Translations under genes and position numbers: made by a program | From: Dudresnaya verticillata | Lineage: Eukaryota | Length of the DNA: 64,000 nt | Assembly: GCA_977862235.1 (NCBI GenBank) | Contig: OZ374560.1 | Coordinates: 2,108,001-2,172,000, forward strand | Direction: 5' to 3' | Part shown: piece after piece, positions 11,778 to 63,415 of the stretch | Layout of the letters: the number at the start of each line of letters is the position of its first letter | How positions within the stretch are numbered: position 1 is the first letter of the stretch | The notes under the pieces: model-generated | The model's database searches: none | Told to the model about the DNA's origin: nothing | Seen by the model: only the letters and a program-made list of their open reading frames with translations

Positions 11778-12449
11778 GAGTCCTGGAATGTGTACGAATT
11801 GGTCATTCGGATGTTGACATCACGGTCGCCGACATTAGCGACACACAACAAGTCACCAACGGCAACAACTGGAGACTGGTTGCCGTTCCTAACCATTACA
11901 GATGATGGGCTTTGACTGATATTCTGGGTAATGAATTGCTCTGAGTTGTTCGTCATATGAGAGGAGCAACCGGAATCAATATACCATTCATATGGTGGCG
12001 AGTCAAGGACAGTAGTGTTAGCGGTTGCACATTTTGAGATGAACGTGATGCAATTTGACCCACTAGTAGCGGTGTCAGAACACAGATTTCCGGGTTTTCA
12101 GAATCTGTGTTCCGAATCAGTCTGAAAAATGTTAATGGAATGAATATTTCTATATCGCATTAGACTGGGGAGAGGGAGCTGAGAAGAATTGTTAAATCTG
12201 TTTTGGGATAGCATGCACGGTTGCGGAGTTACAGCATGCCGCATATACGGGTAAATGCCCCCGAAACTTTGGTGAAAGTTTCGAAACTTTCGGAATTTCC
12301 GAATTAAAATTTATCCAGAAATTGCACTGCCGCCTGCTGCCCTCCCGGGCGCGCCTGGCAGCGCACCGACGCTCGTGCTTCAGCACGCTTGGCCCCGCCC
12401 GCCGCATCCCCGGCCCGCCCTGAGCTGTGTTCAAGGGCGCAGTGTCTCC

Positions 12450-32274: not shown

Positions 32275-33616
32275 GCTTGCGGCTGTAAGGAGTGTAGATC
32301 CACGCGTGTGCGTGGTTGGACTCACGTGGTGAACTACGCCTGGTTCTGTCAGATGCGCGGCTGCATGCCGGACGCAACGTGTCAGACGCGCCTGGGGACA
32401 ACACGTGTCCCGAGTTCCCGCGCGACGCGTCCGCACTGTGGTATTGACGCTCTGCGCAAAACGACTCCGTGGTCTACGTGAAAATAATCGAAAAATACGA
32501 ATTTCGAAGTGACTCCGTGAATGCGCGCGCCACGATGGCAAACCTATTACAGTGCGCATACTGTGAGCACGCCACGATGGCATTCGCATTACAGCACGCA
32601 CGCCATACGAAATCGCTGACACCTCCGGACGAATTCCGAGCTGACTTCGTGATCGCGCGCGCCACGATGGCATTCGCATTACAGTGCGCACCCGATACGA
32701 AATCGCTGACACCTTCGTGACCTTCCCGTTGTTTCCTGCGCGTAACGGCACCGAGGCCCACGACGCGCGTGCACCTCCATATGCATCGCTAGCGCACTTC
32801 GTAACCGCCACCATACGTGAGACGACCGTTCGTTGGCACCGAGGCCGTTACGAATCATTCGAGTACGAACCGTCTCCCGCGTTGACGGGTATTCGTGCCG
32901 ACGTAGTATTACTTAGCCAGTCGTCTGGCACAACCTCCGAGGGTTTCCGGTAAGCGACTAGCGCCCGGACCTCGGAGTCTTCGGTGAACGCCTGTTTCTT
33001 CGAGTTCGCTGTCTTCGTCTGCGTGACCGCGGATACGGTCGAGCCTCGCTTTCGATACCCCCGCGCACCCGGAGTCATCCCCGGTGATCGATCGCTCGAG
33101 TTCTCCCTTCCGCACACGAATACGTTGACACCATGGTCCTTTGTGTTGGTCGCTCCGCTCTACCACGCTACCACCCCTTTTCCTTTCTTCGTTAGGCTAC
33201 GAGGCCACATGTTAGGCTCCGAGGCCATTACTTACAGTGTGAGACTTCCCCGCGTCACCGTGGACTTCGTTATACCACACGCACCGCCGCCGCTAGGTAG
33301 GTGTTCTATACTTACGTGATCCGTCCCAGACGTGAAGGTAAAATCCCGTAGGCTTCTCCGCTAGTGCGTACCTCTCACCACTACCGAAGGCAACTGCCCA
33401 GCTCCACCCGCCCTTCCGCTTCAGCCTACGTCCACAACGTGTTCCTCTCTCTTTCCCTCTCTATCTCTCTCTGGTTTTGCCTTTACCGCCCAGGGCGTTT
33501 ACAGTCCGTCCTTGGCGAGTTTCCCTGGCTCTGCCACAACCTCCGCTACAAGCGGCTACCCACTGGGTAGCGAACAACCCGGAGGTTTGAACCGTCTGAA
33601 GAAGTTTTGAACCACA
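32275..33616 (-). repeat. LTR-family sequence with internal tandem repeats
   Basis: Begins TGTGGTTCAAAAC on -. Shares blocks with 9447-9966 and 33685-34504. Internal 90-bp-period repeat at 32529-32715. Confidence 0.6.
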
Positions 33617-33684
33617 CCAAGGAATAACACGAAACACGGCGAACAATGTGAGGGTAGCGATGTGGTAAGCCGAAAAGTAAATGA

Positions 33685-34504
33685 TGTGGCGCACGGGGTC
33701 CGGGCTCTTATTTACTCGCCATGGGCGCACCGAGGCCGCGTCAACCGACGGACGGTCGCCTGAAACGGCTAGTTCGCCGTTGGCGCGTACACGTCATAGA
33801 CGATTCAATCGACGGACGCACGGGAGACGTGCCCCGCGACACGCGCGCCCGACGCACTGTACGGCACAACGCTGTAGAGCGGGTCTGGATGATGCATCGG
33901 GATCAACGAAGTGTAAGGGGCTTGACTGTCAGCTTGGCTCGAATCCCGATTGAATCCGGATCCGACATCCGGATCGGACTTCGGGATCCGCTGTAATGGA
34001 GGCGCGCCTGTAATACTGTCGTTAATCCGGATCCGAATCCGGATCGCCTACAGCACCGCGCAAGCGCGCTCCTGTAAGGCCCACACGACGGCGTACAGCT
34101 GCTGCACCGCCCCGGACGTGTCAGACGCACCCCCACGCGACACACGTCCCGGGTTCCCGCGCACTACGTCATGCAGCCGCCGCCCCGCGGCCCCGTAGCA
34201 TTACTTAGGTACCTCGTCTAGGACGTAGCAGTAAAGCCCCGGCAAGCCGGTTTGGGTCTGGACTCCCCTTTCGCGTCGCGCGCACTCCACAGCTACCCGA
34301 AGGCCTAAGAGTCTGTCTACCCGCGCTTCCGCGTCCGCTACCGTTCTGGACGTGTTTCTTTTCGGGTTTTCTTCCCCTTTCTACCTACCCTTTGGGCGTC
34401 TACAGTCCGCCCCTGGCGTATCATCGCCCTACCACTACGCGTTGCCGACGCGCTACCCGCTGAACTACTCAGGCGTGCCAACGTCAACGACGATTTGCAC
34501 GACA
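33685..34504 (-). repeat. Solo LTR (820 bp), TSD AATGA/AATGG
   Basis: TGTGGCGCAC...TTGCACGACA termini. Homologous to the 9447 insertion. Confidence 0.75.
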
Positions 34505-35295: not shown

Positions 35296-35660
35296 CTAAC
35301 CCATGTCGTGATGAAACAAAAACTAATAAAGACCATAATAATGGTTATTCTAAATGTCGCATAGCTGTAAGATCAGCTGTGCCACGCACGCGCAGCTGTA
35401 AAACCAGCTGCGCCACGTGTGCACCGCTGTGCCACGCTGTCAGCCGCTGGCGCCGAAGCCCCGCTGAACTGTAAGGAAGTGCGCAGTGGTGCCCGCGCGT
35501 GCACGTGTACGCGTGTGACACTGAAACTCTCGTGCAATTTCTACGTTTATTGTTGTGTCGTGTACAGCACCGTCTAGTGTAAGCGGCGATCGAACATCCT
35601 GCTGTCCCGCGAGCCGTGCGCACGCACTCCGGTGTAGAGCCGTTGAGTGAGTGACACGCG

Positions 35661-36403
35661 TGTGGTGTAGTGAAAACCCACGAACTCCGAGACGGACAGC
35701 TGGCCTGACTTTCCTGACGAGAGCAACACTACCTCCACGGGGTGGTAGAGCAGTTCGCACCGTAACGGGAGAACAGCTAGCTAACCGAGACGGATATTGG
35801 GAAGCAACAGACAAGGGGGTGGTACAAGTGCCGGGACAGACTCCGTAACGGTGGTGGTGGTAGACCGCAACGGGGTTTTAGGGGTTTAGGGTTTTAGGGG
35901 TTTGTGCCGGGACAGACTCCGTAACGGTGGTGGTGGTAGACCGCAACGGGCTCGGCGCGGGGAAAAACGTAAAGGATTGGGCTAAGGTTGCTTACCCGTT
36001 TACCTTAGGAGCCGCTGCGGTGCCGCCCTGATATACAAGTCAGGGTGGCACCGAGTGGTCCGGTCCGTGGGGGCCAGACCCTAGTGGTCTGGTCCTATGG
36101 TGGAATCGGCCCTGCTGGTCCCAATCTCCGACACGGACATGCGCAGCATTCTCATTGGCTGGCGCGCTACTCTACACACTGTACAGATACTCACTAAAAA
36201 TAAAGAATAAATACTACAAATACTCCGGTATGGTTGGTGCGCATCACTGCTGTACAGCAATGCGTACCGGCGTACAGCAATGCGCACAACATCCGACACG
36301 GTTACACGCTGCCAGATCATCAGCGTGGCGTATTGCCACATCATCCGTTACGATTGGCTCGCCGTCGGCGTGTCGCGTGCGCGCCACGGCTCACTTCACC
36401 ACA
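35661..36403 (-). repeat. Gypsy 3' LTR (743 bp, includes telomere-like insertion)
   Basis: TGTGGTG...CACCACA termini. PPT AAGGAGGGGGGTC adjacent on - (36404-36416). Confidence 0.95.
35875..35903 (+). repeat. Interstitial telomere-like repeat (TTTTAGGGG/TTTAGGG)
   Basis: GTTTTAGGGGTTTAGGGTTTTAGGGGTTT between two identical 47-bp copies (35828-35874, 35904-35950). Absent from the sister LTRs. Confidence 0.85.
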
Positions 36404-36535
36404 GACCCCCCTCCTTAAATGGCGCCACGTCCTCGGGCGCCCACCGTCACGGATTACCTTTGCTGCGACACCCACACACAATGATACGGTATCGTGCGCA
36501 ACTTTTCCTCCTCCTTCGTGCGCGCTTCTCCCCCC

Positions 36536-39384
36536 ATGGCAGGGGAGAAGGCTAAGCGCTCACCGTCGCCCTTTCAACCGACAAGGCGTTCCCGCGCTGC
36601 TTCCACAACTGGGGCGCAGGTCGTGCGAACCGTGACGGATGCTTCGACGCAAGCGCCGGCTTCTTCCTCAGCGGCAGCGACGCGACCCGCGACGGGCGGT
36701 CGTATGAGCATCGCCGTGACGGAACCTTCACCGGCTCCATCAGCGAGCCGAGGGTGGTCTGTCTATGATCCGAATCGGTTTGCTGCGAGCGCTGTCACAA
36801 GGCCCTTGCTACCAGGGAGTGCAGAGACTCACCGTGACGGAGAGGCGCCAACCAAGGAGCGCGATGATGCGTTCCGTCGTGGTGGCGAGGAGCTCAACTT
36901 GGCAGACCTACCGGCCATTCCGTTACGGACACCATCGACACCGGTATCGACGCCGAGTGGTAGGATGGCTTCCAGTCCTCATCCTTCCTCAAGTACACCG
37001 AGACGGATGCGTGGCCCCCCGCAAAGCAACCCACTTGCACCGGGGCCTTGGTGGCCGTTAGTGCATACCCGTGACGGAGAGGGCCCTGCCCCGAGTGGTT
37101 ATTGGCCGGGACACCATTTCCACCATCGCGCGGGGCGCCCGGCTAGAACCGATGCGGAAAGGGCTAAGATTAGGCCCCCGATGACGGTGGACCTCTTCAT
37201 TGAGAAGTATCCAACCGTCTTGGAAGCGAGAAGGTACAAGGCCGTCATGGCGCAACCCTTCAAGGCGAATCAACGCATTGGCGTTGTTCCGAATCGGAGA
37301 GAGTTTGTGTGGCAAAGCCGATGGGTGCATGGCTATTGTCAAGCGAGGACCTCTACCGTTTCGGATTTGTTGTGATATCGCTGCCATGGGGAGGTAGGAT
37401 ATACCGCCAAGGTGAGTCACCTGTTGGGCACAGGTTTCCGTCTTCGGGGTGCGCCGGTCGGAGTGCAATTCATTTGCTTCGACCGCCCCTATGACCAATC
37501 GGTATATTGGTTCCGCTATGCCGATGGGTGGAAGGACGATGCTGCGACGGAACACCGTTTGCGAACTCGTTCCCGTGACGGAATACAGGTTGGCTCGCCA
37601 ATCCTGCATACTTGGAACACTAAGGAGTTCTTCCATCTTCCGTATCGGGTACGTCGTGAGTTGTACCTTACAGCTCCGTCATGGTGGGCGCGTTATGAGG
37701 TGACCCGTTGGTTGTCTGTCCCCACGCCGTCCGTCGTAGCGTACTTCTCGGCGGACTTACTCACCGAACGGGAGTGGAACGACAAACATCCGAACGGAGA
37801 ACGTCCCCCGAATCAAGATCAGCTCGATGTACTGTGGCGCATCTTCCGATCGGAATGGGCCATGCTGGTGCTCTTCTCGTGGCTCCAGGTGGCCTATTAC
37901 GGAGTTCGGTATAACACCAAGTTAGCTCACTGGCGATGCTTCCCACGGGATGAGGATGACCTGCCGGGAGGAGACTGTGGCCGTATTTTTCAACTTCCCG
38001 TAACGGTGATCGCCCTGATTCGCGAAGTCGGCGTAGCCGATTTAGTGACGGGGTCGGCATACCCTCTCCATCGGGTTGAGCGTCTTTTATCCGTACACGG
38101 AGAACAAGATTGGCAACGCACTCCGGGCTTCTTGGGGTATAATTGGGACGAGGACCGTGTCCTATCGGTGCCCCCGTTGAGGCCCGGGGTGGGTGAGCCC
38201 TATTTCCTTCATCGAGAAGATCCGCGTCCGGAATGGTTGGCCTTAGAGGTGCAGGCCCATCGGGACTATGCCTCTCGCCAAGCACCAAGGGATGCGTACC
38301 GTGACGGTTTGGATGGGGCTGAAGATTGGGGAAGCTGTCATGGGACAGCGGGGCGTCCGCGTACAATCGACCCACGCGATTCCGTTACGGTGAGGCAGCA
38401 AGAGGCTGACCCCTTCGTGGAAGACCAGGAGGAGGTCATGCCCGTGGCCTCAATGGCAGCGGGTAGCGAGAAGACACCCTCTCCAATCCTTCCGGTGGCC
38501 GCGACACCCACGTCGCGCGAGGTGGCTCTTGAGACTACTACTCCCGTATCGGATAAGACCCCAACACCCATAGGCGTGGTTGCACCGACCAAGGCGGTGC
38601 CCAAGCTTGCGGCACCATCCAAGGAGGGAGTCTCAAAAGAGCAGACCGTTTCGGAAGTGGCGCCGGATACTGTACCAGTGGCACTGTCTCCTGCGACGCA
38701 AATGCCTGTCGCCGCGGAACCGCCCCTACCAAGTGCTCCGCTGTCGGCGCCCACTCCCACACCAGCGGTGAGTGAGGCACCGATCACCGTATCGGCAGTG
38801 GCTGCAAAGCGCCCAAGTGTTGGGGCAGCTGGAGACAAGCCCTCGGTTCTTGCGTCAAGTCATGAACCGTTACGGAAAAGCGATATCGCCTCGCCAGAGA
38901 AGGACACGGATCCACCGCTGCGGAAGGACGTACCTTCACCCGAGTCGGGACCATCCGTATTGGTGGTTTCCTCAACGGAGCATTCACTCGAAGCCGGGGT
39001 TAGGGATAAGCCGTCGATCTCCCCGAAGGTAGAGCTTCAAGAAGATGAGGATCCCCCGTTACGGTTCCGGCTCATCTAGCCGCTACGGAAAGTGGGTTAC
39101 AGGTGCTGCGAGGCATTTGCCGTACGCAGCGCTTCCCATTGCCAGGATCCGTTCAGGAAGCGCTAACCCTAGCGGAGGGGCTAATGGAACAGGTAATTCA
39201 GCTCCGCTCAGTGGACCGTCGTCAGCGTCGGCGCATGGATAGTACGATTCGCGTCTTGGGAGACAATACGCAGCGCGTATTCCAATCGGATCCGAGTGGG
39301 GAACCCGGCTTACGAACGGGTCGAGGGAGCAACGAGGAAGACACAGTGGCCCCTGCTCCGAAACGGCGTCGACGTAACTCTTAG
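36536..39384 (+). pseudogene. Large antisense accessory ORF of the Gypsy element (~950 codons; one TGA, one frameshift)
   Basis: ATG at 36536. Same frame through TGA 37373-37375 to ~39055, then a shift near the C-run into the 39103-39384 frame ending PAPKRRRRNS. W/Y/F-rich globular core about 37050-38250 and P/S/T/A-rich linker. Confidence 0.75.
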
Positions 39385-39484
39385 AGTTACAGCTCGACGA
39401 TCTCCTTAACGGTTTCCATTATGCCTCGATCTTAGCTTGCGATAAACGTTGTGTGTTATCACACCCCAACGTTCTAACTGTCCG

Positions 39485-42400
39485 TTACGGTGAGTGACGT
39501 GCTGGATTAGCACGTCGCCGTGGCTTACCCTTAGCGGATGTCTTTTTCTTTTGCTTCCAATATCGGTAGATGAAGTTCTGCGGTAACTCCTCCGCGGGCT
39601 CAAAAGTGTCCTGATACGGAGGGTAACCATACCAGCGGACTTTGTATGTCATCCCAGTAGGTTCGTCGCGGTGACCGACATTCTTGTCGATCACATATTC
39701 CGTATCGGCTTGCAGTGGTTCCGTCGCGGAGGGAGTAGTACCTTCAGAAGGAGGTACTACTGTAGTACCTCCTGGATGTGGCACTAATTCTCCGTAGACG
39801 GTTGATGGCGTGACAGGCGGCACTGTTAAGGGTGCCGGCTGAACCGCAACTCCGATCGGAACCTTCGTGATACGATCAATACTCACGGGGATCAATACCC
39901 CTTCCTTTCGGATTGTAACAACATGTTCCGTTGCGGATTCCACTTCGTAAGGCCCCGTGGCTCTCGGAAGGAGTTTCTTCATTTCCTGAGCCACCTCGCC
40001 TACATCATCCGGCTTGCCTTCCAATCGGTCCCGTTCACGGCGTTCGGCAGGCCGCAAGTTATGGGGCGGCCTGTCGACGTAGACTTGATCTCCGTTACGG
40101 ATTATGGGCCTAAAGCGCATCTTACGGTCAAACAGGGCCTTGGCTTTTTGCTGAGCCACTGTTTGCTTCGTGCGCGCTGTTTGGAGCGCATACCGTAAAC
40201 GGCGCATGGTACTCCGCTTATGTAGCACCGGGGTCATACGCCCTTCCGTAACGGTTTCTTGATGCTCGACAGGAGCCCCTCGTACAACAATGTCCGATGG
40301 GTGGCGTGTCAACACCAAATCAAATGGCGTTGTTTCCGTAACACGGTGCACCTGCATGTTGTACGCATACGTCAACGGTTGCAGGTACAGATCCCAATCG
40401 GAGTGATGATCCTCAACGTAATGGCGCAAATGCTGAGCGATTGTCTTATTAAATCGCTCAGCTTGCCCATTTGTCTGCGGATGGTAGGCGGCGGTGAGCA
40501 GGTGCCTGACTCCGAGTAAGGAACACACCGCGTCGAAGAACTTAGCAGTAAACTGCGGTCCGTTATCGGTTAGGACAAATTGGGGTGCACCATAGGCGTA
40601 CACCCAAAAGTCCAGAAAGGCATTAGCCACCACAACGGCTGTTGTTGTCCGTAACGGAATACAGCGCGTCAGCTTAGAGAACCAATCGGTAATTACCAAA
40701 ACGTAGACATAACCCCGTTTTGTCTTCGGAAGTGGCCCGAGAATGTCGATAGCGACAAACTCCAAAGGTCCGCTAGCGGGGAAGAGCTTCATAAATCTTT
40801 GATTCCGAAAGCGGGTTCCCTTTGTCTTCACGCAGGAGCGACATGTCCGAACGGATTCAAATACATCGTTGGCCATATGAGGCCAATAATAATCCTGTCG
40901 GAGTGTGTAATACATCTTAATTCCGCCTGGGTGACCCGACATCAGGGTGTAGTGGGATAAATACAATACCCGTCCACGGAGTTCGCTTGGCACCACCTTC
41001 TGTAGAGCGCCATCCAATTGGGACTTGCGTACCAAGAATCCGTTACGGTCATAGTCAAACTGTGATCCAGGGGAGCCTACCGTATCGGCTTTGGGACGGC
41101 AGAAAGGGTCTCTGGCTTGCGCTTCGAGAAACGCCTCCCTGGTAATTGTCTCATCCTTAACGTCGGATTCTTGGATTACAGTAAACCGTGACGGTATTGC
41201 GTCGGGCTTGTCAGGGGAGGCGGATGCGCTCCCACTGGCGGGCTCCACGGTGCATATTACGTTATTTTCCGTAGCGGTTTCTTGTGATGTAGCCCAATCG
41301 GTTAAATAAACTCCATGCTCATATAATCCGTCGACGGTATTTTCGGCGATAAAGCAGGGTATCTCTTCATCCAAAGGTCTATCGTCACCGCCATCCGTTC
41401 GGAGTCGCGACATTCCATCGGCGAGTTGATGCTTAATTCCAGGACGGTATTGCACCTCAAATTCAAATTCCGATAGGCGGAGCCTCCACCTGGCAAGGCG
41501 GCCAGATGAGTCTGCGAGGTTCAGGATCCACCGCAGGGCATCGTGATCCGTTCGGAGAATAAACTTGTCACCGTAAAGGTAGGGTCGGAGTGTTAACATG
41601 CTCCAGACCACGGCTAAGCATTCCTTTTCGGTTGTCGTATAATTTTTCTCCGCATCGGTGAGGCTTCGGCTCCAATATCCAATAGGGAGTTGATCGCCAT
41701 TCGGTTGTTCCTGCAGAAGGACACAGCCGACTTGGTGGTCACATGCGTCCGTGTCCAACGTATATTTATATCCGTGACGGGGTAGAGCCAATATAGGTGG
41801 AGAGATAAGGCGTCTCTTCAGTTCCTCGAAGGCTTCATATTCCGTATCGGATAATATTCCAAACTCAAAGGGTGAGCCCTTGCCGGTTTTTTTAGCGGAG
41901 CTGAAATCCGACCGAAGTTGGGTACAAAGCGACGATACACGTTGCACATTCCCAAGAAGGATCGCAATTCCGTTTGGTTTGTCGGCGGCTTCGCGACCTT
42001 GACGGATTGGATATTTCTATTATCCACTTCTAATTTTCCGGGACGGATAACATGCCCCAGGTATTGTACAGACGCGTTGAAGAAGTCACACTTTGACAAT
42101 TTCAACGTTACCCCAGCGGATCGTAAAAGCGTAAGGACTTCCTTCAGGTGGTGGAAATGTTCCGTAACGGTTTTTGAGTAGACAATTACATCGTCTAGGT
42201 AGACGAGGGCAAATTGCCATTTAACCGTAGAAAGGATTATATCCACTGCCCGTTGGAAGGTTGCCGGTGCATTTTTCAATCCGAATGGCATTCTCCGAAA
42301 ACGGTATAAGCCAAAGTGGCTAGTGAAGGTAGTTTTGTCCCTTTCCTCTTCCGGAATCTCGACTTGCCAATATCCGCTATTGCAATCCAGGGTGGTAAAT

Positions 42401-43753
42401 ACAGTAGCTTCCCCAAGGGAATCTATGCACTCATCCATCCTGGGCAAGGGATATGAGTCCCTAACCGTTACGGAATTGAGCCTTCTATAGTCAACACAGA
42501 ACCGCATGGTGCCGTCCTTTTTTGGAACGAAAACCACGGGGCTGGCCCACTCCGATGAGGCTGGTTCAATTACCTTAGCGGAAAGCATGCGATCGATCTC
42601 TGTCTTTTCGAGATCTCGCTGCTTATGTCCGGCACGGTATGGGGCTTGGTATACTGGCTTAGCTCCGGGAGTTAACTCGATGCGGTGCTTGGCAGCTGTA
42701 ATGTTGCCAAGATCGCCACTCCACATCGACTTATATTCCTCGAGTAGGGTTAAAATCCGTTTGCGGAACGATGCTTCTTCTGTGCCGATCTGGACTTGAT
42801 CCTTCCAGTCGGTAGTATTTTTATTTTCCGTTACGGGTTTGCTTACTTCCTTTTCGTGAGGGGAGATGCTGCTGGCCTTTTCGGAGGTAGGGTTAGAATC
42901 AAATGATTGAATAATTCCTCCCCCCTCCTTAAATGGAGGTATACCGTCAACGGTAAAAATAGCAGAGGGGGCAGCAGTAGCGAGGCCCACGACAGTAGAT
43001 TTGGGCAACCGTACCGGCTTGTTAGAAAAATTAGAGACCCAGATCCGAAACGGTTTGTTAGGTACAACATCCATAATACCATTAGCCATTAACGTAAGGT
43101 GCTTAAAAGCCGGCTTAGGATGATTTTGTAGAAAGCATAACCCACCCGTGGGGTATTAACCGTTACGGAGGTTTGAGTCATAGGGGGAATAAGGGTAGAT
43201 TTTGCAAACGAATTTTCTGAGAAACCGTAGCGGTAGAGAGAGGTGAGGGCTGTAGGGTTGCAGTGGTTCCCGTCTTCGGAATTTTGGCTTGACCAACAAG
43301 GGATACCGGTGGGTAATGATGAAAAACAACTTTCCGTAACGGAGGGAGTATTGCCTTCACGTAGCGGTCGATGAAGGTAGTTCCCAAAATACAGGGAGCC
43401 GCCAAGTTCGCGACCACTAGAAAATGGACGCGAGCACGGAGCTCTCCGATACGGACGAAAAGCTGGATCTGACCAAGAGGGCGTATAGCGCGATTAGACG
43501 CATCCCGTAATGGAGGACTGGATGCTGGGCGTATGAGTGGGAGCCATTGGCGCGGAAGGCGCCTGGCACTAATGAGATTGGGCCCAGCGCCAGAGTCCAA
43601 GACGGAGATTAAAGGAAGCATCACGCTATCTGTCCGTCTCACGGTAATTTGCATCTTGTAATTTTGATGTTGCATAAAGCAGATAGTATCATTGGTCTGA
43701 TAAGCCAATGGGAGTTCCGTAACGGTATCTCGCCGATCCCCTGGCGGGTCCAC
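39485..43753 (-). pseudogene. Gypsy pol: protease, RT, RNase H, integrase, chromodomain (frameshifted)
   Basis: LDSGAGPNLI; RFCVDYRRLN, LDCNSGYWQ, YLDDVIVYS; DTDACDHQVG, TTEKECLAV; GHPG..CRSC, TDNGPQF, HPQTNGQAERFN; chromodomain YVIDKNVGHR..YKVRWYGY..DTFEP. Confidence 0.95.
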
Positions 43754-43797
43754 ACTCGCGAGAGGTGGAACGCCGTGAGGCGGGGATGGCGGCGCCC

Positions 43798-46275
43798 TTA
43801 CGCATCCCCCCTTGAGTTTTCCGAATTCAAGGTTGCACCAGTCGGATCCGCCTCCATGGACTCGCGCAATTCTGCGAGTTCCACTCCGTCATGGTCCTCC
43901 ACCGATAGTATCGGGGCATTCCGTTGCGGAGGGGGCGTTTGCGGTCTGCCCCGATTCCCTTGCGGAGTCGAACTGGTTCCTACTACGAACCTGCGACCTA
44001 CAGGGTAGTGATTCTGGAAGTTGCGCTCGCGCTCTTCCATAAGCCTAACCCAATCGGCGTCATGTATCCATGGGCAAACAACGTGCTCTGGCGAAAGGCA
44101 GATGCGACAGTTACCACTTCCGTAAAGGCGTCGGACCCGAGGATCCGACTCATCCCGTAGCGGAGGTGCTTGTTGCTGCTGCCCTCGCCCATCGTGGGCA
44201 TTATTTCCGTAACGGTGACTCGGCTGCTGTTGGGGGCCAGGAGCTGGGCGAGATCCACCATAGGGGGGACCTTGCGCGCGTGGCAACCTGGGCGGAGTAG
44301 GGTGGACGCTTTGCGGGGGCGAGGAGTACGGGGTAGAAAAGGTAACCCCCGTGCTCGTTCCCGTAGCGGCACCCTGGCATCCCTCGATGGCTGGCACTTG
44401 ATTATCCGTAGCGGAAATATTCCCTTGCGGCTCATAGTATACATCCGATACGGAATCCAGCAACAACACCTTAGACGGGCGCGCTTTAGTGCGCCCATCA
44501 AAGACGTGAGCCGGAACGGTTTGGCGTCGAGCTGCCCGATGGGACTGACCCAGGCCAGTCGCATAGCGAGTGATGGCCTGATAATCCAACTGGGAATGCG
44601 TCGCTAGATAATTTCTCATCTGTTGACGAGTACCCGGTAGGAGTCCTTCAACGAACAGTGACTTCAATGCCCGATCGGAAAATACTGTACCGCAACGGAG
44701 AGCCTTGGCCCAGAGCTGGTTCGAGAACTGCTATTCCGTCATGGCGGACGTTTGCCTGAAGTTGCTGGCATCCGTATAGGCTTCCGCAATCACTTCATCC
44801 GTAGCGTAGGTTCTCAATAAAAAGTTCACCACCTCGGAATATGTGCGGAGCATCTCGGCCTGCTCCACGTCAACCGCCATGGTACCTCCAGCAAGCCTAG
44901 CCTGTAGAAGGGCTTCGGCCTGTCCTTTAAGGAAAAACTGGAAGCAACAGACGGCAACCCCTTCGGCGATGCCGTTGATGTTACAACCGTCACGGAACTT
45001 GGCGAGAAATCCCAAGACGGTAATAGGGTCCGTCCCATCGAATGTATGGGACGACATCTGGACGTCGAGTTTCTTCCGTATACGGCTCATGTTCTGTGAG
45101 AACTTAGAGCCGTATGTCTTACTCCTCTTATCCAATCGGTAGGTGCGGTAATCTAGCGCCTTGACAAACTTGTCATGTAGCGGCCGGATTACCTTCACCT
45201 TTCCGGATTTGGCACCGTGTTTTCTGGCCCGGTGCCTATTCTCTCTATCCGTTACGGAAGAACTCTCTGAGTCTGAATCCGTAGAGGTAGAGGAGTCATG
45301 CCCTTTTTCGCGTTTCCGCGATCTTCTGTTTCTCATCTTGCGGCGGCGGTGTTGGCTATCTGAGCTGCTCTCATTGGATTCCTTACCGGATTGGTGGCGT
45401 CGTCGCTGGGTGTGGTCGCCCATGTGCGACCGACGGGGAGGGTCAGAGCGGGAGTGTCGGGCATCTCGGTTATGCCGACCTCGACCGGTCCTCCGACTCG
45501 GATGGGGTGAGCTGGACGCATCGCTGAGATGGTCGCTGCCTCCACCTGATCGAACCGGAACGGTATAGCGCTCTTGCTGATAGCGCCCTGGCGTAGGCAT
45601 ATCTACGTGTCCAGGAGAATACCGTAACGGTGGCTGAGTGTGTGTTGGTCCCGTAGGGGCGTATTGACGTTGAGAATCCGTTACGGGAGCCGGTGGCAGT
45701 GGCCCAGAGGGTACTGTGCCCGGCGGTAATCCCATAACGGGGGGTTGTTGCGGCTGCTGCGTTCTTCCTTCGACCGGGAAGTCATTCCGTAACGGTGGTT
45801 GCTCAGTGAAAGCTTCCGTAGCGGGAGGCCTTGCCATGCCGGGAGCAATCTGGCTCTCGAGCTCGGCGGCCACCTTTTCCTGTAGGATCAAAGCTTGCAC
45901 TATCCGAGGAAGGTGCCGCTCCAGATAGGAATTAACCAAAGACGGAACAGTTTCCGAGAGGGATATCTCCACCTATTTTACCATTCCAGGTTGTACTTCC
46001 AATCGGAGATGCTCTAGCACCCTAGGAAGGACCTCCGACAGGACCCAGTGGACCCGATGGGATTCCGGCTTGGGTTGCGGAGCTGCCTTCTTGGAGGCGT
46101 CTGATCCGACACGGGAACGGGGAGCTTTACCAGCAGCACCCTTTAGGATGTCTTCTGGGTTCTCCACTCCGGAACGGATTTCACCTCCTTCACTGCGCAG
46201 ACTGCGCGCAGCGGGGGTAGTGTCACCCGCTTTAGGTTCCGTAACGGGAGGGTCTGCGTGTTCTTCGTTCTGCAT
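43798..46275 (-). pseudogene. Gypsy gag (two in-frame TAG stops)
   Basis: Three same-frame ORFs: FDGTDPITVLGFL, YSEVVNFLLRTYATDEVI, LKSLFVEGL, Zn-knuckle-like CRICLSPEHVVCP. Confidence 0.85.
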
Positions 46276-46402
46276 GATGCCTTAACGGAACAAAACGGTT
46301 GTTCTTGCTTGTCTATCCAATATTCCGTAACGGGTTGTCGGTACAGCCGAATTCCTACCGTAGCGGATTTCGACGGCTGTTTCTTCCAACCGTGACAGTG
46401 TT

Positions 46403-46418
46403 CTAGGTCGGGAGACCA
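46403..46418 (-). promoter_or_regulatory. Primer-binding site (possibly tRNA-Tyr)
   Basis: TGGTCTCCCGACCTAG lies 5 nt inside the 5' LTR boundary. It is complementary to a tRNA end ..CGGGAGACCA, as in eukaryotic tRNA-Tyr. The tRNA identity is inference. Confidence 0.7.
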
Positions 46419-46423
46419 AAAGA

Positions 46424-47098
46424 TGTGGTGTAGTGAAAACCCACGAACTCCGAGACGGACAGCTGGCCTGACTTTCCTTAACGGACGAGAGCAACACTAC
46501 CTCCACGGGGTGGTAGAGCAGTTCGCACCGTAACGGGAGAACAGCTAGCGGCTAACCGAGACGGATATTGGGAAGCAACAGACAAGGGGGTGGTACAAGT
46601 GCCGGGACGTACTCCGTAACGGTGGTGGTGGTAGACCGCAACGGGCTCGGCGCGGGGAAAACCGTAAAGGATTGGGCTAAGGTTGCTTACCCGTTTACCT
46701 TAGGAGCCGCTGCGGTGCCGCCCTGATATACAAGTCAGGGTGGCACCGAGTGGTCCGGTCCGTGGGGGCCAGACCCTAGTGGTCTGGTCCTATGGTGGAA
46801 TCGGCCCTGCTGGTCCCAATCTCCGACACGGACATGCGCAGCATTCTCATTGGCTGGCGCGCTACTCTACACACTGTACAGATACTCACTAAAAATAAAG
46901 AATAAATACTACAAATACTCCGGTATGGTTGGTGCGCTTCACTGCTGTACAGCAATGCGTACCGGCGTACAGCAATGCGCACAACATCCGACACGGTTAC
47001 ACGTTGCCAGATCATCAGCGTGGCGTATTGCCACATCATCCGTTACGGTTGGCTCGCCGTCGGCGTGTCGCGTGCGCGCCACGGCTCACTTCACCACA
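46424..47098 (-). repeat. Gypsy 5' LTR (675 bp)
   Basis: TGTGGTG...CACCACA termini. Colinear with the 3' LTR apart from small indels and the 76-bp insertion. Confidence 0.95.
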
Positions 47099-47705
47099 AC
47101 GCGCGCGCGTACTCCGGCGTGGAGCCGTTGAGTACATGTGGACCGTTTCGCCCACGCGCGCCCCCGGGTTACCTAACCCGTACGCTTCGACGCGTGTCGC
47201 GGCGCGCCGGTGCACCTCCCTAGTTGGTGCCGCCACAGGAACTGTATTATATTTAGTAGTCGCCCCTCTGGGCTTGAGTAAACGATCAGGCTTCAGAGCC
47301 GTTGATCTGCGACCGTCGACGGCGCGCGCGGCCGCAACCACCGCTCTACCACCACCGCTACCACCCTTCGACGGGCCTGGGTGCGACTACGAGACCAGCC
47401 GCGCTAGACGCCAGTTCGACCTGACGTTTATACCACACTAAACAAATAAAAGATAGCCTTGACAGTCAATGTAGAGGCAGATAAAGGGCGGGAGGGATAG
47501 GAAGAAAGGATAGACTTGCTGCTTCGTAGGGAGAGCGACAGGCGATAGCCTTGTGTACTGTAACCACCATGTCGAGGGAGACCCAGAGTTGCACTTTGCA
47601 TATTCTGTTCCCGTTGTCAGTGGCAACATTGGATCTGGTACCCTGGGCGAGACTCCATCTTTTAGCATCCTTCTGATTCTGTTCGCGATGGATGAACCAC
47701 ATTTG

Positions 47706-48381
47706 TGTGGTGTAGTGAAAACTCACGAACTCAGTAACGGACAGCTGGCCCAACTTTCCTACACGGGACGAGAGCGACACTACCTCCACGGGGTGGTAGA
47801 GCAGTTCGCACCGAGACGGAAGAACGGCGAGCGGCTAACCGAACCGGATATTGGGAAGCAGCAGACAAGGAGGTGGTACAAGTGCCGGGACGTACTCCGT
47901 AACGGTGGTGGTGGTAGACCGCAACGGGCTCGGCGCGGGGAAGATCGGAAAGGAAACAGCTACTGTGGGAAAGAGGCTCAAGGGTTGCTTACCCGTTTAC
48001 CTTAGGAGCCGCTGCGGTGCCGCCCTGATATACAAGTCAGGGTGGCACCGAGCGGTCCGGTCCGTGGGGGCCAGACCCTAGTGGTCTGGACCCATGGTGG
48101 AATTGGCCCTGCTGGTCCCAATCTCCGACACGGACATGTGCAGCATTCTCATTGGCTGGCGCGCTACTCTACACACTGTACAGATACTCACTAAAAATAA
48201 AGAATAAATACTACAAATACTCCGCTACGGTAGGTGCGCCTTACTGCTGTACAATAATGTACGCCAGCACACAACAATGCACCCAAGACCGACACGGGTA
48301 CACGTGCACACATCCCACAACGGTTTAGGCCACACTATATGCATTTCCACCGGTTTGGATGCCGAATCGCACTTCACCACA
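47706..48381. repeat. Solo LTR related to the Gypsy LTRs (676 bp), TSD ATTTG
   Basis: TGTGGTGTAGTGAAAAC...CTTCACCACA. ATTTG at 47701-47705 and 48382-48386. The centre is nearly identical to 46424-47098, the ends are more diverged. Confidence 0.92.
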
Positions 48382-49049: not shown

Positions 49050-52000
49050 CTCAACATTGTGGTCTTTGTTCCTTCGAGTCTTTCTCTCCGTCTTCCTCAC
49101 GCCCCTGCACACACCAATCCCTCTCCTCCTTCGTCCTGTCCTATTCGACTCCCCTTGCCGACATGCCGGGCGGCTTGGCCCCTGCCCCCGCCCTGGTCGA
49201 GCAAAAATTCGTGAAGTTTGCTCATGCGTCAATCGACTTTATTGCTGCTACCGTAGCGGACCTTGAACCTGTCGTCGACCTCAACAACCCCACCTCCGTG
49301 TCCGCGTTTCTCTCCCATCTCTCAACCTCTTCAACTGTAACCGCCTTACGTCCAATGTTCGCTTCCGAAACGCCATTCGGCGCCATGCTTCGCATCTTCA
49401 ACCAGATATCGCTACCGTACGACACCGCTCCGGGTCGTTCGTACCTCAAAGCTGTTAAATCATCAAATGCTCCTGTCGCGCGCCTCCCTACTCGCTCAAC
49501 TGGCAAATAACCTCCGCTCGATCCAGCCACAACGCACATTACCGCCGAGTTGGCAGCTTCGTTACGACGTACGTCCCGCAGTCTATGTGGCTACTCCCCG
49601 CATCGCTTTGTTCGCGTTGTTTCATCTACAGCTTTCGCAAACCCAGCCCATTTTCGCAATGCCCTGCAGATTGGTGGCTTCCCTGGCCCTGTCGCTGTAA
49701 TTCCTACTACGGACGCCACGCAACCCTACGTTTGCGCCCCGGAGGTAACGATTCAGCACACCAACACCGCCTATGCTACCTTCCGGTCCTTCGCGCAGGT
49801 CCCCAATTCTACTCCCCCCAACATCACGGTTTCATCTGTTCTGTCTGATATCGCTGCCCCGCTCCGCTCCGCTGGCGCTGTTCGTCAAGTCCTTGCTCCA
49901 CTTCGAGCAGAGATACATCGTCTTGAAGGAGCTGACTGTCGATGGGGTCCCAGACGTTTCTTTGCTGCCGCCCTGCGGAAGGCAGACAAGGATCTGTACG
50001 CCCGTCTCCATCATCTCAATCCATCTCATTCTGAACAGCCAATCACACCGCCCGTAACCGCAACGCCATCCTCCACTGGCAAACGCCCGGCCCCAGCTCA
50101 ACTGCCCACTGCCGCTGCACCTCGTCCCATGCCCTTGAGCGCTCGACCTTCTACCCGTTACATGATTGGTGCCCGCCCTGTTTCAGGCCCTCAGAACTCC
50201 TCTCCGACAGCTCCCCTCCCCTCTTCACCTGGGACCCCCACTACACCCCCTACTGCAGCCCCCAATTCACCCCCCTTGACGCCCCCACTGCCTCCACTGC
50301 ACCCCCCACAGCCCACCCCACTATTACAGCTGCTCCACCCTCGGAATCTCCCCCCTGTCCTACTTTGCCTTGCACGTCTGGTCCTCCTGGCGTATCGGCA
50401 AACCGATTTGCCTTGCTTCCCGAACAGGATTGCGCTGATACCATTATGTCAACCTGATACGCTCTCGCCCTCTCGACTCGGAGTTTACGGTCACTCACAG
50501 CTCAGAAATCGCCCTTCCCACCGCCCTCCATCTTGACACTCCTGCACCACTCTCTTCAACGTCTCGTCCCACTGTTGGCCCTTGCCCTCCACTTCATGTT
50601 CTGATGACTACCCCTATTCGTACTGTTGACTATATCCCGAATGCAATGCGATCGGAATTCTGTGAACTCTTCACTACTTGCATACACGAATTTTTACGAG
50701 CCGTTACCCCTGAACAACAGCGCCTATCCTTCACTCGGCTACTTGCCATCCCCAAGACTGTTCTCCGTCGAATGGGGTCTGGGGAACCACGGAATCGCAA
50801 CCGCCGTACATTTCAAGCTGTTTTACGTCGCCGAATACATCGTGCTTTAATTGGTGACTGGAACGCGCTCTTCCACGAAGCCTGTGACTCGCAGGACGCT
50901 GAACGCTCTTCTCTGTCCCGTCGTCGATCCTCACATTTCCGCGGATGTCGCCGCTCCATGCAGCAGGGTTCTGTTGCCAAAGCGGCGCGCTGCCTCATGT
51001 CAGATTCCGATGCCGTCACTCCCACTCCCGAGACGCACGACGCCTTAAATCTCCTGCACCCCCGCCCATCGACGCCTGTGAGTGCCCGGGACGCTTCAAC
51101 GCTACCTTCCTCTGCCCCGTTCTCTACTTCCGATGTTCGGTTGGCCATCAAATTGCTATCCAACTCGTCCAGTCCCGGCCCTGATGGACTGCGGGCCAGT
51201 ATGCTCAAGGCTCTGCTGCATGGGAATGGGGGCACCGATCCCTCTCGCGATCCTCTACAGCTATTGACACAGCTCGTGAATTGCGCCGTGAATGGCGGGC
51301 TTCCCCAATCCGTCCAACCCTGGTTCTGCTCCAGCAATCTTGTGGCATTCCCAAAAGCTGCACACCGCCCCACCGACCTCCGTCCTATTGCTGTTGGTCT
51401 CCTTCTGGCCCGTCTCTTCAGTAGACTCCTTGCTCGGCGCGCATCTGATTCTCTTGGCTCTTACTTCCGCCAGTTGCAGTACGCAGTTGGCACGACCGGT
51501 GGCTGTGAAATCATTGGCCATTCCGCTCGCACCTGGTTCCAGGAAGCGCCTGAAGCGAACTTGGCTTTGCTTCAGATTGACGCTTCAAATGCTTTTAACA
51601 GCCTGGAACGTCAGTGTATCCTGGATGAAGTTTCCACTCAAGCTCCTGACCTCTCCCGGTGGGTACATTTCGCCTATGGCACACCCTCTCCGCTCATATT
51701 TGGTCCCTTCACACTTCTCAGCCGTACCGGGACTCGTCAAGGGGACCCTCTCGGAATGCTTCTCTTTTGCCTGGGCATCCACCCTCTACTCCAGCGCCTC
51801 TCTCCTTCCCCTGATATATACATGCTTGCTGCCTATGCGGATGATCTCAACATAATCACCACTCGCTCGTCAGCACCAGGGCTTCTTTCCTCCATTCAAT
51901 CAGATGGACGCACAATTGGCTTCAATGTCAACATGGCCAAGACGTGGGCGTCATGGCCTTCTCTTACCTCGCCAATCCAAGACCTACCGTGCCCTGTTCG

Positions 52001-53460
52001 TCCCGCTACTTCCGCAAAAGTCGTTGGGGTGCCCCTGGGATGTCTAGCGCTTGACATTGCATTTCTAAAGCTCGAATCTACGCATGAATTGCTTCGTGGT
52101 CGATTCACTACACTATGTGATCCCCAAATATCATTTCACATTATCCGTGTTTGTTATGGCGTTAGTAAGCTATCGTTTCTCCTTCGTACTGTGCCGCCGC
52201 ACTTAACCCGCGCTGAAGTCGACGAGTTCGACCGGAGGCAGCGAGGCATGTATGAAGAGACACACCGTCCCCTGACCGACTCCGCCTGGTGCCTCGCTAC
52301 GCTTCCTGTTCGTTTTGGGGGTCTTGGAATAACCTCTGCGTCTGATATTGCCCATGCTGCTTATGCGGGCTCGCTGCTTCAAGTCCGCTCAGCGGTTCGC
52401 CTCCTCACCAACAGAATCGGACAATTTGCTTCTGCTTGCATCTCCCCGATCGATAGAGCCATCACAGAAGCACTGCTTCCTCTACAAAACCTTTCTCTTC
52501 TCCCCTTGCCTCTCACCCCGGAAGCTCTATTAAGGAAAGCTACTCAACGCAATGGTTCGGTTCCTGGCATTCAAATGTCCATTACGGATAGTATTATGGC
52601 TGCCCGTGCAGCTGTACTCCGCTCTCCATCGCTTTCCTCGCATTCTTCAACAGTACAAAAATCGTACATGGCTCGTCTACTGTCCTGCAGTACGGCTGCA
52701 GCTAGTGCGCCATTTACTGCCCTCCCGAATACCTATCGCGGTACTCGCTTCACCCCGGAGGAATGGATTACCGCGTGTGATATCCGCTTGGGCAACCCGG
52801 TTTTCACCGGCACCACTCGTTGTCCCCACTGTGTACTCACGCGGGGCGTGACGCAAGCTCCCCTACTTGATCCTCTCGGGAAACATGCCATCATCTGCGC
52901 TAGGCGCGAAGGTGCTATCCGGCGTCATAACACGTTACGCGATGTTCTAGCCAACGAATTCCGCCAGCTGGGCCTACGCCCTATCTATGTCGAATACTCA
53001 TTTCTCGCCGAACGTCATCTACCCCCTACTTCTCGTCGCCGTATGGACGTGGTGGTTCCTATATCTGCCTTTAACCCCCGCCCTCAGGCATTTGACGTTA
53101 CGGTGGCAGCCCCGTTTGCTGCCAATTACTGCACTGCCGCCTCTCGCTTGGGTGGGGCAGCGGCGACGCTCGCTGAAAGGCCCAAAAGAGCGCATTACCA
53201 AGATCTACTCGACAGCGAGGGAATGGATTTCTATGCTGTCGGTATTGACTCCTACGGCGCTATTGGCACTGAGGCTCGTCAGGCGTTACGTGCCATTGGC
53301 CGCTTTACGTCCGAACGGAGAGGGAGTAACCCTTCGGACGAAACGCAAGCACTCACGAATCGCATTGTATCTCATCTTCTCCGCTTTCAGGCGCTGGCGA
53401 TCAATCGCCGTCGTCTTGCCCTTCAGGTAGGTCCTTGCGTAGACGGGGCGACTTAGCGCC
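49050..53460 (+). mobile_element. CRE-like non-LTR retrotransposon (RT + REL endonuclease), near full length
   Basis: Upstream Pro-rich ORF pieces 49163-50536 followed by the 950-aa RT-REL ORF. 5' end approximate. No poly(A) tail or TSD recognised. Confidence 0.85.
50604..53456 (+). CDS. Reverse transcriptase + Zn-knuckle + restriction-enzyme-like endonuclease
   Basis: SPGPDGLR, LRPIAVG, IDASNAFNSL, GTRQGDPLG, AYADDL, LPVRFGGLG, CPHC..HAIIC, RRHNTLRD, RMD, FDVTV. Confidence 0.92.
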   Translation: MTTPIRTVDYIPNAMRSEFCELFTTCIHEFLRAVTPEQQRLSFTRLLAIPKTVLRRMGSGEPRNRNRRTFQAVLRRRIHRALIGDWNALFHEACDSQDAERSSLSRRRSSHFRGCRRSMQQGSVAKAARCLMSDSDAVTPTPETHDALNLLHPRPSTPVSARDASTLPSSAPFSTSDVRLAIKLLSNSSSPGPDGLRASMLKALLHGNGGTDPSRDPLQLLTQLVNCAVNGGLPQSVQPWFCSSNLVAFPKAAHRPTDLRPIAVGLLLARLFSRLLARRASDSLGSYFRQLQYAVGTTGGCEIIGHSARTWFQEAPEANLALLQIDASNAFNSLERQCILDEVSTQAPDLSRWVHFAYGTPSPLIFGPFTLLSRTGTRQGDPLGMLLFCLGIHPLLQRLSPSPDIYMLAAYADDLNIITTRSSAPGLLSSIQSDGRTIGFNVNMAKTWASWPSLTSPIQDLPCPVRPATSAKVVGVPLGCLALDIAFLKLESTHELLRGRFTTLCDPQISFHIIRVCYGVSKLSFLLRTVPPHLTRAEVDEFDRRQRGMYEETHRPLTDSAWCLATLPVRFGGLGITSASDIAHAAYAGSLLQVRSAVRLLTNRIGQFASACISPIDRAITEALLPLQNLSLLPLPLTPEALLRKATQRNGSVPGIQMSITDSIMAARAAVLRSPSLSSHSSTVQKSYMARLLSCSTAAASAPFTALPNTYRGTRFTPEEWITACDIRLGNPVFTGTTRCPHCVLTRGVTQAPLLDPLGKHAIICARREGAIRRHNTLRDVLANEFRQLGLRPIYVEYSFLAERHLPPTSRRRMDVVVPISAFNPRPQAFDVTVAAPFAANYCTAASRLGGAAATLAERPKRAHYQDLLDSEGMDFYAVGIDSYGAIGTEARQALRAIGRFTSERRGSNPSDETQALTNRIVSHLLRFQALAINRRRLALQVGPCVDGAT

Positions 53461-61646: not shown

Positions 61647-61735
61647 AGCAGCTGCCCTGTCTTTACTGCTGAACTCATATCAGCTCGTCCAAAACAGTAC
61701 GCACTCCGCCCAGTCAAGTTGGGTACCACCTCAAC

Positions 61736-63415
61736 ATGGTTTCTCGAAACGCTCTCCTGCGCATTTCCGTCTTCGTCGCATTTTCTCAAGCTGCCTTTTT
61801 CGCCCTTGCCGTAGGTACCGCTCCATCCTCCAGGACTGGCAGCTCTCTCAAGCCCGAGTGCGCTTCATGCGTTGAGAATTTTGAATGCGCACAAGGGAAA
61901 TGTTGGGGCAGTCCGCGCAAGTGCACGGACGGAACATTTCACTCGTTGAGCAATTGCTTCCCGGGAGAGTGTGAACCCTGCCAGAATGAGTTTGGCTGCG
62001 CCACCAAGAAGTGTCTCAACGGAAAATGCGTTTTCGACACCCAAGAGTCGGAAGCCAAGTGCTTCCCGAAGAAGATGGAATGCGAACTCTGCAAGGAGGA
62101 CGAAGAATGCCAACAGGGAAAATGCTGGGGCAAACCTCGAAAGTGCACTGATGGCACCCTGCCGTCGCTGAAAAAATGTTTCCTAGGCGAGTGCGAGCCT
62201 TGCACGTCCGAGTTCGAGTGCAGTACAAAGAAGTGTACCAATGGTAAATGCACTTTCGACACTATCGCTTCGATGGACAAGTGCTTCCCGAAGAAGAAGG
62301 AATGCGAGCTCTGCAGGGAGGGCGAAGAATGCCAACAGGGCAAGTGCTGGGGAAAACCGCGAAAGTGCACAGATGGCTCCTTGATTTCTTTGCAGAAATG
62401 CTTCCTGGGCGAGTGTGAACCCTGCACGTCGGAGTTCGAGTGCAGTACAAAGAAGTGTACCAATGGTAAATGCACTTTCGACACTATCGCTTCGATGGAC
62501 AAGTGCTTCCCGAAGAAGAAGGAATGCGAGCTCTGCAGGGAGGGCGAAGAATGCCAACAGGGCAAGTGCTGGGGAAAACCGCGAAAGTGCACAGATGGCT
62601 CCTTGATTTCTTTGCAGAAATGCTTCCTGGGCGAGTGTGAACCCTGCACGTCGGAGTTCGAGTGCAGTACAAAGAAGTGTACCAATGGTAAATGCACTTT
62701 CGACACTATCGCTTCGATGGACAAGTGCTTCCCGAAGAAGAAGGAATGCGAGCTCTGCAGGGAGGGCGAAGAATGCCAACAGGGCAAGTGCTGGGGAAAA
62801 CCGCGAAAGTGCACAGATGGCTCCTTGATTTCTTTGCAGAAATGCTTCCTGGGCGAGTGTGAACCCTGCACGTCGGAGTTCGAGTGCAGTACAAAGAAGT
62901 GTACAAATGGAAAGTGCACGTTCGGCACGGCAGCTTCCGTTTCCAAGTGCTTCCCGAAGAAGAAGGAGTGCGCTTCTTGCACGAAGGGTGATGAATGCGA
63001 GCAGGGCAAGTGTTGGGGAGCAAAGTGCACGGACGAGTCTCCGGAATCACTGAAGCGTTGCTTCTTGCCCGAATGTTCACCATGCACCTCTTCATCCCAG
63101 TGCAGCACGAAGCGATGTGCCGGTGGGAAGTGCGTGTTCAACACCCACACTTCCATTGCGAAATGCTTCAAGAAGAAGGAGTGCGACCGATGCACTAGAA
63201 GTGATCAATGTGAGCAAGGCAAGTGTTGGGGACACCCGGCTAGATGCACAGATGGTTCTCCTGCTTCCATGAAGAAATGCTTCCTTCCAGAATGTTCGAG
63301 GTGCTACTCAAGCCTTCAGTGTAGCACGAAGAAATGCTGGAGATATCGATGTGTGTATCCGAATCGGTATTCCATCAGAAGGTGCTTCAGACGCCGCAGG
63401 CGCTTGCATTGGTAG
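61736..63415 (+). CDS. Secreted Cys/Lys-rich repeat protein (559 aa), paralogue of 56115-56708
   Basis: Signal peptide (ISVFVAFSQAAFFALA), about 14 six-Cys modules in alternating A/B pairs, basic tail RRRRRLHW. Confidence 0.9.
   Translation: MVSRNALLRISVFVAFSQAAFFALAVGTAPSSRTGSSLKPECASCVENFECAQGKCWGSPRKCTDGTFHSLSNCFPGECEPCQNEFGCATKKCLNGKCVFDTQESEAKCFPKKMECELCKEDEECQQGKCWGKPRKCTDGTLPSLKKCFLGECEPCTSEFECSTKKCTNGKCTFDTIASMDKCFPKKKECELCREGEECQQGKCWGKPRKCTDGSLISLQKCFLGECEPCTSEFECSTKKCTNGKCTFDTIASMDKCFPKKKECELCREGEECQQGKCWGKPRKCTDGSLISLQKCFLGECEPCTSEFECSTKKCTNGKCTFDTIASMDKCFPKKKECELCREGEECQQGKCWGKPRKCTDGSLISLQKCFLGECEPCTSEFECSTKKCTNGKCTFGTAASVSKCFPKKKECASCTKGDECEQGKCWGAKCTDESPESLKRCFLPECSPCTSSSQCSTKRCAGGKCVFNTHTSIAKCFKKKECDRCTRSDQCEQGKCWGHPARCTDGSPASMKKCFLPECSRCYSSLQCSTKKCWRYRCVYPNRYSIRRCFRRRRRLHW
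62180..62920 (+). repeat. 222-bp in-frame tandem repeat (74 aa)
   Basis: Unit starts at ~62180, 62402, 62624 and 62846. The central copies appear identical at DNA level. Confidence 0.92.

Follow-up and report, generated by a model that had tools for sequence, protein, structure and literature searches.

Host element

The window, meaning the whole 64,000-nucleotide stretch of DNA that was analysed, contains a full-length Ty3/Gypsy chromovirus-type LTR retrotransposon of 11.4 kb on the minus strand. The LTR pair, target-site duplication (TSD), polypurine tract, PR-RT-RH-IN order, and chromodomain ending the integrase were all found. The 5' LTR (46424-47098) carries nine copies of the palindrome CCG-N3-CGG and the 743-bp 3' LTR (35661-36403) carries ten, and the full element is bounded by the TSD ACGCG (35656-35660 and 47099-47103). 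A primer-binding-site-like stretch follows the 5' LTR at 46401-46423, and the polypurine tract precedes the 3' LTR at 36404-36423. Between them, all on the minus strand, are a gag frame assigned from its position without a Pfam match (43798-46281), an aspartic protease (43178-43888; weak Pfam match, E 0.009), a reverse transcriptase (RT; 41818-43155, Pfam), and a segment with RNase H, integrase, and chromodomain (39485-42016, Pfam), in which the chromodomain matched Chromo PF00385 at E 3.8e-7, above the Pfam cut-off. The coding frames are broken by two in-frame stops in gag and by frame changes between PR and RT and between RT and RNaseH-IN. The pol stop codon sits within a CCG-N3-CGG palindrome (39482-39490).

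The two LTRs aligned with 663 matches and 6 mismatches (2 of these in included flanking bases), small indels, and one duplication, and from this near identity the insertion is young. The duplication, of about 76 bp with about four telomere-like GGGGTTT(T)A units at 35872-35903, is private to the 3' LTR, is missing from the 5' LTR alignment, and possibly arose by break repair after insertion. A solo LTR of the same family lies at 47706-48381 on the minus strand with its own TSD (ATTTG) and eight CCG-N3-CGG sites. Among the best 120 RT relatives, two seaweed proteins with names were found, both from Agarophyton chilense. Together with the Gracilariopsis names in the accessory protein family (see below), they make a red alga, rather than a land plant, the likely host.

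Elsewhere in the window, the LINE-like element at 49511-53456, which has an RT domain in addition to its two long frames, contains only one CCG-N3-CGG site. A 580-codon frame at 61673-63415 has a hydrophobic N-terminus and cysteine-rich 74-residue repeats with no Pfam match above cut-off; related DNA lies near 56253. Dispersed direct and inverted repeats at 9700-9860 and 32370-34270, accompanied by local repeats of 90 and 132 bp at 32497-32717, probably represent the LTRs or termini of a different element close to a Copia-type integrase frame (10281-11819).

Antisense accessory gene

An accessory gene of 2849 bp, about 949 codons, lies on the plus strand at 36536-39384, antisense between pol and the 3' LTR. 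Its frame opens with the ATG at 36536, is interrupted by one TGA (37373-37375), and stops at 39077-39079. A frameshift within 39049-39079 leads to a second frame, 39049-39384, which ends APAPKRRRRNS*; judging by the basic C-termini of intact relatives, this last piece would belong to the same protein. A gene of about 950 codons had been described here in an earlier note on this DNA, and it was recovered together with all the peptides quoted there. The note had placed the start about 130 bp inside the 3' LTR boundary. The distance held (133 bp), but the ATG is internal to the LTR edge at 36403, beyond the polypurine tract, and a start within the LTR is thereby ruled out. The gene converges on pol, as had been claimed; pol ends at 39485, leaving a 100-bp gap and zero overlap, which rules out a shadow frame of pol. 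Its longest open frame has 567 aa, compared with a mean of 169 and a maximum of 343 in 1000 base shuffles of 36404-39484. The decay of one TGA and one frameshift had been likened to that of gag and pol, and the gag-pol frames are indeed broken to a similar degree.

The predicted protein has a disordered N-terminus, a conserved core, a P/S/T linker, a helical segment, and the terminal PKRRRR. The core (residues 205-600, 37148-38335 on the plus strand) is rich in arginine and aromatic residues and is conserved family-wide. The aromatic-rich core and P/S/T-rich linker of the earlier description were both found, with 13% W/F/Y in the core and 48-49% P/S/T/A in the N-terminus and linker. PKRRRR had also been named as a nuclear localization signal; the basic C-terminus stands and recurs in intact relatives, and the nuclear signal itself is a putative reading. 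The peak 19-residue hydropathy was 1.58, without a clear membrane helix, and 0.7-1.6 across five proteins; with the antisense orientation, these values rule out an env identity, in agreement with the earlier claim that env-like architecture was absent. A bacterial promoter scan, a type ill-suited to such DNA, was blank. Homologues at the equal position and in the same orientation in relatives, with pN below pS, bear out the view that the gene is a genuine part of the element, and that it is real can be taken as practically certain.

Palindrome array

CCGTNACGG was found 41 times in the window, compared with 1.06 in 100 shuffles, and 39 of the 41 copies fall within the element. The fuller motif CCG-N3-CGG, with the preferred form WCCGTNACGGW, makes up a dispersed, unstranded array of 92 copies at 35687-47048 (8.0 per kb), whereas the flanks hold 4 in 35.7 kb on the left (0.11 per kb) and 10 in 15.6 kb on the right. 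Palindromes are present also within gag, pol, and the accessory gene itself. The 73 internal sites are spaced more evenly than random (mean 138 bp, CV 0.71, p 0.0004). Base preferences on one strand mirror each other, with T in 64 copies at the fourth base and A in 58 at the sixth, which suggests a two-fold symmetric binder of double-stranded DNA.

The array could in principle have no partner and be a side effect of codon usage, amino-acid sequence, tandem duplication, or biased mutation. Yet 64 of the 92 sites lie in coding DNA, in all three frames, seven-fold above the 9.3 expected (maximum 17 in 300 synonymous shuffles), and a single exact spacer is used (92 copies at N3, 1-18 at other spacers). 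The sites are not in tandem repeats, and there are no matching tandem arrays, so that a tandem-repeat origin is ruled out. Tripeptides coded by the motif are over-represented in the element's proteins, at 6.5-15.3 per 1000 aa compared with 0.7-2.6 in the pol of relatives, and sites are conserved at synonymous positions in relatives (see below). Codon, protein, and tandem causes are thus largely refuted, and an array with no partner at all is hardly credible. In the window's pol, motif codons at otherwise invariant columns were not changed more often than others (7/22 compared with 127/480, p 0.62). The 10 closest RT relatives had motif-coded peptides at 5.0 compared with about 1 per 1000 aa, mostly at the same inherited positions, and for that reason they are weak evidence for a clade-wide array.

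Homologues in related elements

An RT alignment was used to retrieve 77 loci from genome contigs, 11 of them at 55-63% identity. These close loci (L001-L011) are eukaryotic-looking contigs binned with two bacterial genomes, G001 and G002; L007, only 1.2 kb long, was excluded from later tests. With at least 13 eukaryote-type Gypsy RNase H matches in it, the G001 bin is contaminated with host DNA, and a profile of the accessory core matched 1 of 257 genomes of G001's family, namely G001 itself. The window element and the G001 elements likely reside in different hosts. In an RT tree of 32 rows, the window element, the L001/L002/L004/L009 group, and the remaining six formed one supported clade with an unresolved base.

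A long antisense frame lies directly after pol in three relatives, L001 (1007 aa), L004 (853 aa), and L002 (475 aa, cut by the contig end); those of L001 and L004 are intact, between pol and the contig end. The last 75 codons of the gene are visible in L009, where 72 of 74 residues are identical to the protein P0127, and a fifth homologue (815 aa) was found in L084, on a contig without pol. The relatives have a common architecture of disordered N-terminus, aromatic core, coiled coil (weak coiled-coil Pfam matches), P/S/T tail, and basic end. The window core matched L001 in BLASTP at E 7e-6 and the relatives in hhalign with probability 88.9 over 222 columns. A four-relative profile, from an alignment built with the window row present, singled out the window frame (E 2e-6) from 1477 sequences, 500 of them shuffles; the next match stood at E 2. 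Between L001 and L002, the accessory gene had pN 0.40 and a saturated pS of 0.76, and protein identity was 43%, compared with 76% for pol; a rough omega of 0.36 was obtained for the L001-L084 core. These comparisons indicate that the gene is under purifying selection in relatives, yet evolving much faster than pol.

L003 and L011 have no antisense frame above 162 aa in the 1.2 and 0.6 kb downstream of pol, and in the distant lineages L088-L091 a purine tract and LTR, identified by eye, come straight after pol. The L003 DNA after pol (4925-6153), with no long antisense frame, is rich in TTCGAA, and its best dyad is AAG-N2-CTT (12 compared with 2.4). In L004 (8470-10130) and L009 (8290-10187), 1.7-1.9 kb with short frames of 90-130 codons separate pol from the antisense gene, compared with only 100 bp in the window element.

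Protein family of the core

In an exhaustive profile search, the core family numbered 182 representatives at E 0.001, of which 41 remained at 1e-10; among the 150 matches listed, 149 were new. On its own, the window core recovers 121 of these 149, the best being P0143, P0142, and P0146, with a best E of 2.7e-37 computed for this small 149-member set. One candidate, P0165, was a false positive, a bacterial-type repeat protein. Among 20 members looked up, those with names were one cluster of four Gracilariopsis chorda hypothetical proteins under five accessions; several accessions in one cluster are expected of a mobile gene, and G. chorda has at least five loci of this cluster. Conserved core positions are W259, R262, H265, E339-x-R341-x-R343, E364, R373, Y377, P381, V395-P-x-P398, Y403, and E440-W441, with several arginines among them. 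A basic cluster, by a loose pattern, is present in the last 60 residues of 14 of 36 long family matches.

No Pfam domain was found on the core in 52 family members at E 0.001 (one of the 52 being the false positive) or in four cores at E 10, including DUF1985 and PMD-like domains, and the accessory proteins gave no Pfam match to TRP28 (PF04195) or PMD, the domains of plant antisense ORFs. Sequence profiles searched against PDB, including a 54-sequence profile, returned nothing under E 1.7. AlphaFold models of the accessory proteins were mostly helical with pLDDT of 32 and 48; with these low-confidence models as queries, Foldseek returned nothing at E 0.001 from PDB and BFVD, and the best VIA-align Z was 4.2. 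Blank fold searches with such models are not proof of a new fold. With the window core, a word-indexed protein search (lengths 465-1483 only) and an Atlas search yielded no relatives. Metagenome, genome, and viral contigs, scanned by pattern with single proteins or with a five-row core alignment, likewise gave none. In the literature covered, mainly open-access papers, neither the core family nor an LTR retrotransposon with palindromes along its whole length was described.

The core might instead be an enzyme that acts sequence-specifically at the palindromes, adding or erasing a mark on DNA or chromatin. The near-invariant E339, E364, E440, Y377, and Y403 could be catalytic, and methylase and oxygenase accessory genes are described for red-algal Plavaka transposons in the available text of 10.1101/2025.02.11.637652. 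Neither Pfam nor the 54-sequence profile against PDB sequences gave a match to an enzyme family; the protein is not a recognisable captured enzyme, and an enzyme is considered highly improbable.

Different palindromes in relatives

The gene-bearing elements with DNA available represent two independent clades. In L001 and L002, the palindrome CTC-N6-GAG with a self-complementary K-M centre was found 25 times each, compared with 2.8 and 2.6 expected, and in both the count in coding DNA was 23 compared with 3.0. L004 has a weaker N6/N8 version (CTC-N6-GAG 15 compared with 4.4 in coding DNA), and CAC-N7-GTG is spread over L009 (17 compared with 2.7). There was no cross-enrichment: CTC-N6-GAG and CAC-N7-GTG were not enriched in the window element, nor was CCG-N3-CGG in L001, L002, L004, or L009. 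Weight matrices cross-react inside the G001 group and not with the window motif, and the four G001 gene-bearing elements have a related CWC...GWG motif family in common. The log10 p of the best dyad was -62 for the window element, -15 for L001, -16 for L002, and -8 for both L004 and L009, compared with -5.1 or weaker in the other 12 loci, near the shuffled nulls (down to -5.5). Elements without a visible gene showed no such palindrome, but they are weak controls: L005, L006, L008, and L010, of the same clade, end inside pol, and L088-L091 are distant lineages. L084 has the gene, and its motif count was 7 compared with 4.4 (p 0.11), while its best dyad did not exceed the null; the post hoc pattern scored in L084 gave p 0.022 in L010. 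Spacing was even in L001 (p 0.013) and not significantly so in L002, L004, and L009.

Despite near-saturated synonymous sites, 10 of 18 aligned sites are common to L001 and L002, and their third positions are conserved at 20 of 27 within sites compared with 713 of 1497 (p 0.01). A short, dense, family-specific motif that is rare elsewhere and differs between related families is present. That relatives with a diverged protein carry different dispersed palindromes is indirect support for a pairing of protein and motif; differences in the gene and in the motif alike run along kinship in the RT tree, so they do not by themselves demonstrate co-evolution.

In the main rival reading, what the palindromes attract is a dimeric transcription or chromatin factor of the host, and the antisense gene serves another function. 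Dyads of CCG/CGG triplets are typical sites of host factors in fungi, the zinc-cluster proteins. A dependence on host would also fit the finding that the window and G001 elements, likely from different hosts, differ in motif and the four gene-bearing G001 elements have related ones. A host factor is harder to reconcile with how rarely the motif appears among the window's remaining transposons and genes (4 in 35.7 kb), with spacers and half-sites that vary within one bin (N6 in L001 and L002, N6 and N8 in L004, CAC-N7 in L009), and with the lack of a comparable dyad in other Gypsy elements of that bin, though these perhaps come from another organism. On balance, this explanation is thought unlikely.

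Less likely again is a role at the replication stage, in which the accessory protein, Gag, or integrase coats cDNA or genomic RNA, giving compaction, a block to self-integration, or nuclear import. The even element-wide coverage and terminal basic signal would suit a pre-integration function, and retroviral accessory proteins offer a precedent, as discussed in PMC7264820. Strand symmetry and a centre of 1-3 bases speak against an RNA hairpin, and a motif that changes from family to family, with a protein evolving much faster than pol, sits more easily with host conflict than with a structural role.

Proposed mechanism

The most economical reading is likely that the antisense protein is the binder, in a VANC-like self-recognition with the sites written into coding sequence. 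On the sequence evidence above, the protein probably binds the CCG-N3-CGG sites. Pfam gave no recognisable DNA-binding domain in the accessory proteins, for which the models are poor. The antisense transcript would start in or beside the 3' LTR, and the basic tail would direct its product to the nucleus. Two subunits could pair through the helical or coiled-coil segment, fitting a two-fold symmetric site, and the arginine- and aromatic-rich core would read both half-sites. With one site per about 140 bp, about once per nucleosome, the protein could coat the whole integrated copy and oppose repressive chromatin, and it could act in trans on solo LTRs and broken copies such as the window element. 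That a dimer on these element-tiling palindromes would protect transcription of the element's own copies from host silencing is given close to, and slightly less than, an even chance. One candidate for the opposed mark is H3K27me3; 10.1101/2025.02.11.637652 reports that this mark silences transposons in Cyanidioschyzon and describes macroalgal chromatin as unexplored. CpG was not depleted in the element or its flanks (o/e about 1), which leaves DNA methylation as the opposed mark without support here.

Protein and site may drift together to give each family a private code. The broadest form of the proposal is held tentatively and with more doubt than belief: red-algal Gypsy elements may have such a private protein-DNA code, with an undescribed, fast-evolving DNA-binding family of well over a hundred divergent members, each with its own spaced palindrome written about once per nucleosome through coding sequence, even at amino-acid cost, to escape silencing.

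Comparison with known systems

Published systems are compared here as described in the available sections of the cited papers. The VANC proteins of VANDAL elements, which are Arabidopsis Mutator-like elements, bind family-specific motifs at high density (PMC5735166), and VANC21 is predicted to dimerise through a coiled coil (PMC13547354). The likeness to VANDAL/VANC extends to an accessory gene inside the element, a dense short family-specific motif that is rare elsewhere, related families with diverged proteins and different motifs, and a conserved domain with variable regions (PMC5735166), as well as a predicted coiled-coil dimer (PMC13547354). In contrast, the present element belongs to class I (LTR), comes from what is likely a red alga, and is not a Mutator-like DNA transposon; its sites are palindromic, single, and dispersed, with 64 of 92 in coding DNA, whereas those of VANDAL are same-orientation non-coding tandem repeats (PMC5735166); and its accessory protein has no DUF1985 or PMD match in Pfam, the models being too poor for fold comparison. 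TnpA of Spm/CACTA elements is likewise an element-encoded regulator that binds family-specific motifs at high density, and its clustered motifs follow element phylogeny (10.64898/2026.08.24.746577). TnpA is, however, transposase-derived and acts at the termini of a DNA transposon (10.64898/2026.08.24.746577), while the accessory family here has no transposase match and its sites span the whole element. By this comparison, the element appears to work like VANDAL/VANC and Spm TnpA yet belongs to neither: the element class differs, no domain match was found, and its palindromic sites lie within coding DNA.

The antisense 3' ORFs of Retand, Grande, and RIRE2 are also long, lie between pol and the 3' LTR, and are common to related elements; they are proposed to be nuclear and regulatory, and some have Smc-like coiled coils (PMC11963269, PMC7264820). 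Those elements differ in being non-chromovirus elements of flowering plants with TRP28 domains and local tandem arrays (PMC11963269, PMC7264820), whereas here a chromodomain element has an unrelated core, an element-wide palindrome array, and no PF04195 match. No target motif for the Retand, Grande, and RIRE2 ORFs was found in the available text of PMC11963269 and PMC7264820.

Sequence-specific self-protection is established for plant DNA transposons through VANC and TnpA (PMC5735166, 10.64898/2026.08.24.746577), and the function of antisense 3' genes in LTR retrotransposons is an open question in the literature (PMC7264820, PMC11963269). In each family described here, a candidate protein comes together with a candidate site that is sharply defined. 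With the array, cis sites are seen to shape gag and pol at synonymous as well as non-synonymous positions. The finding may bear on the LTR-driven genome growth reported for many red seaweeds (10.1101/2025.02.11.637652). If true, the private code would be a retrotransposon counterpart of VANC and would provide a natural library of matched protein-site pairs.
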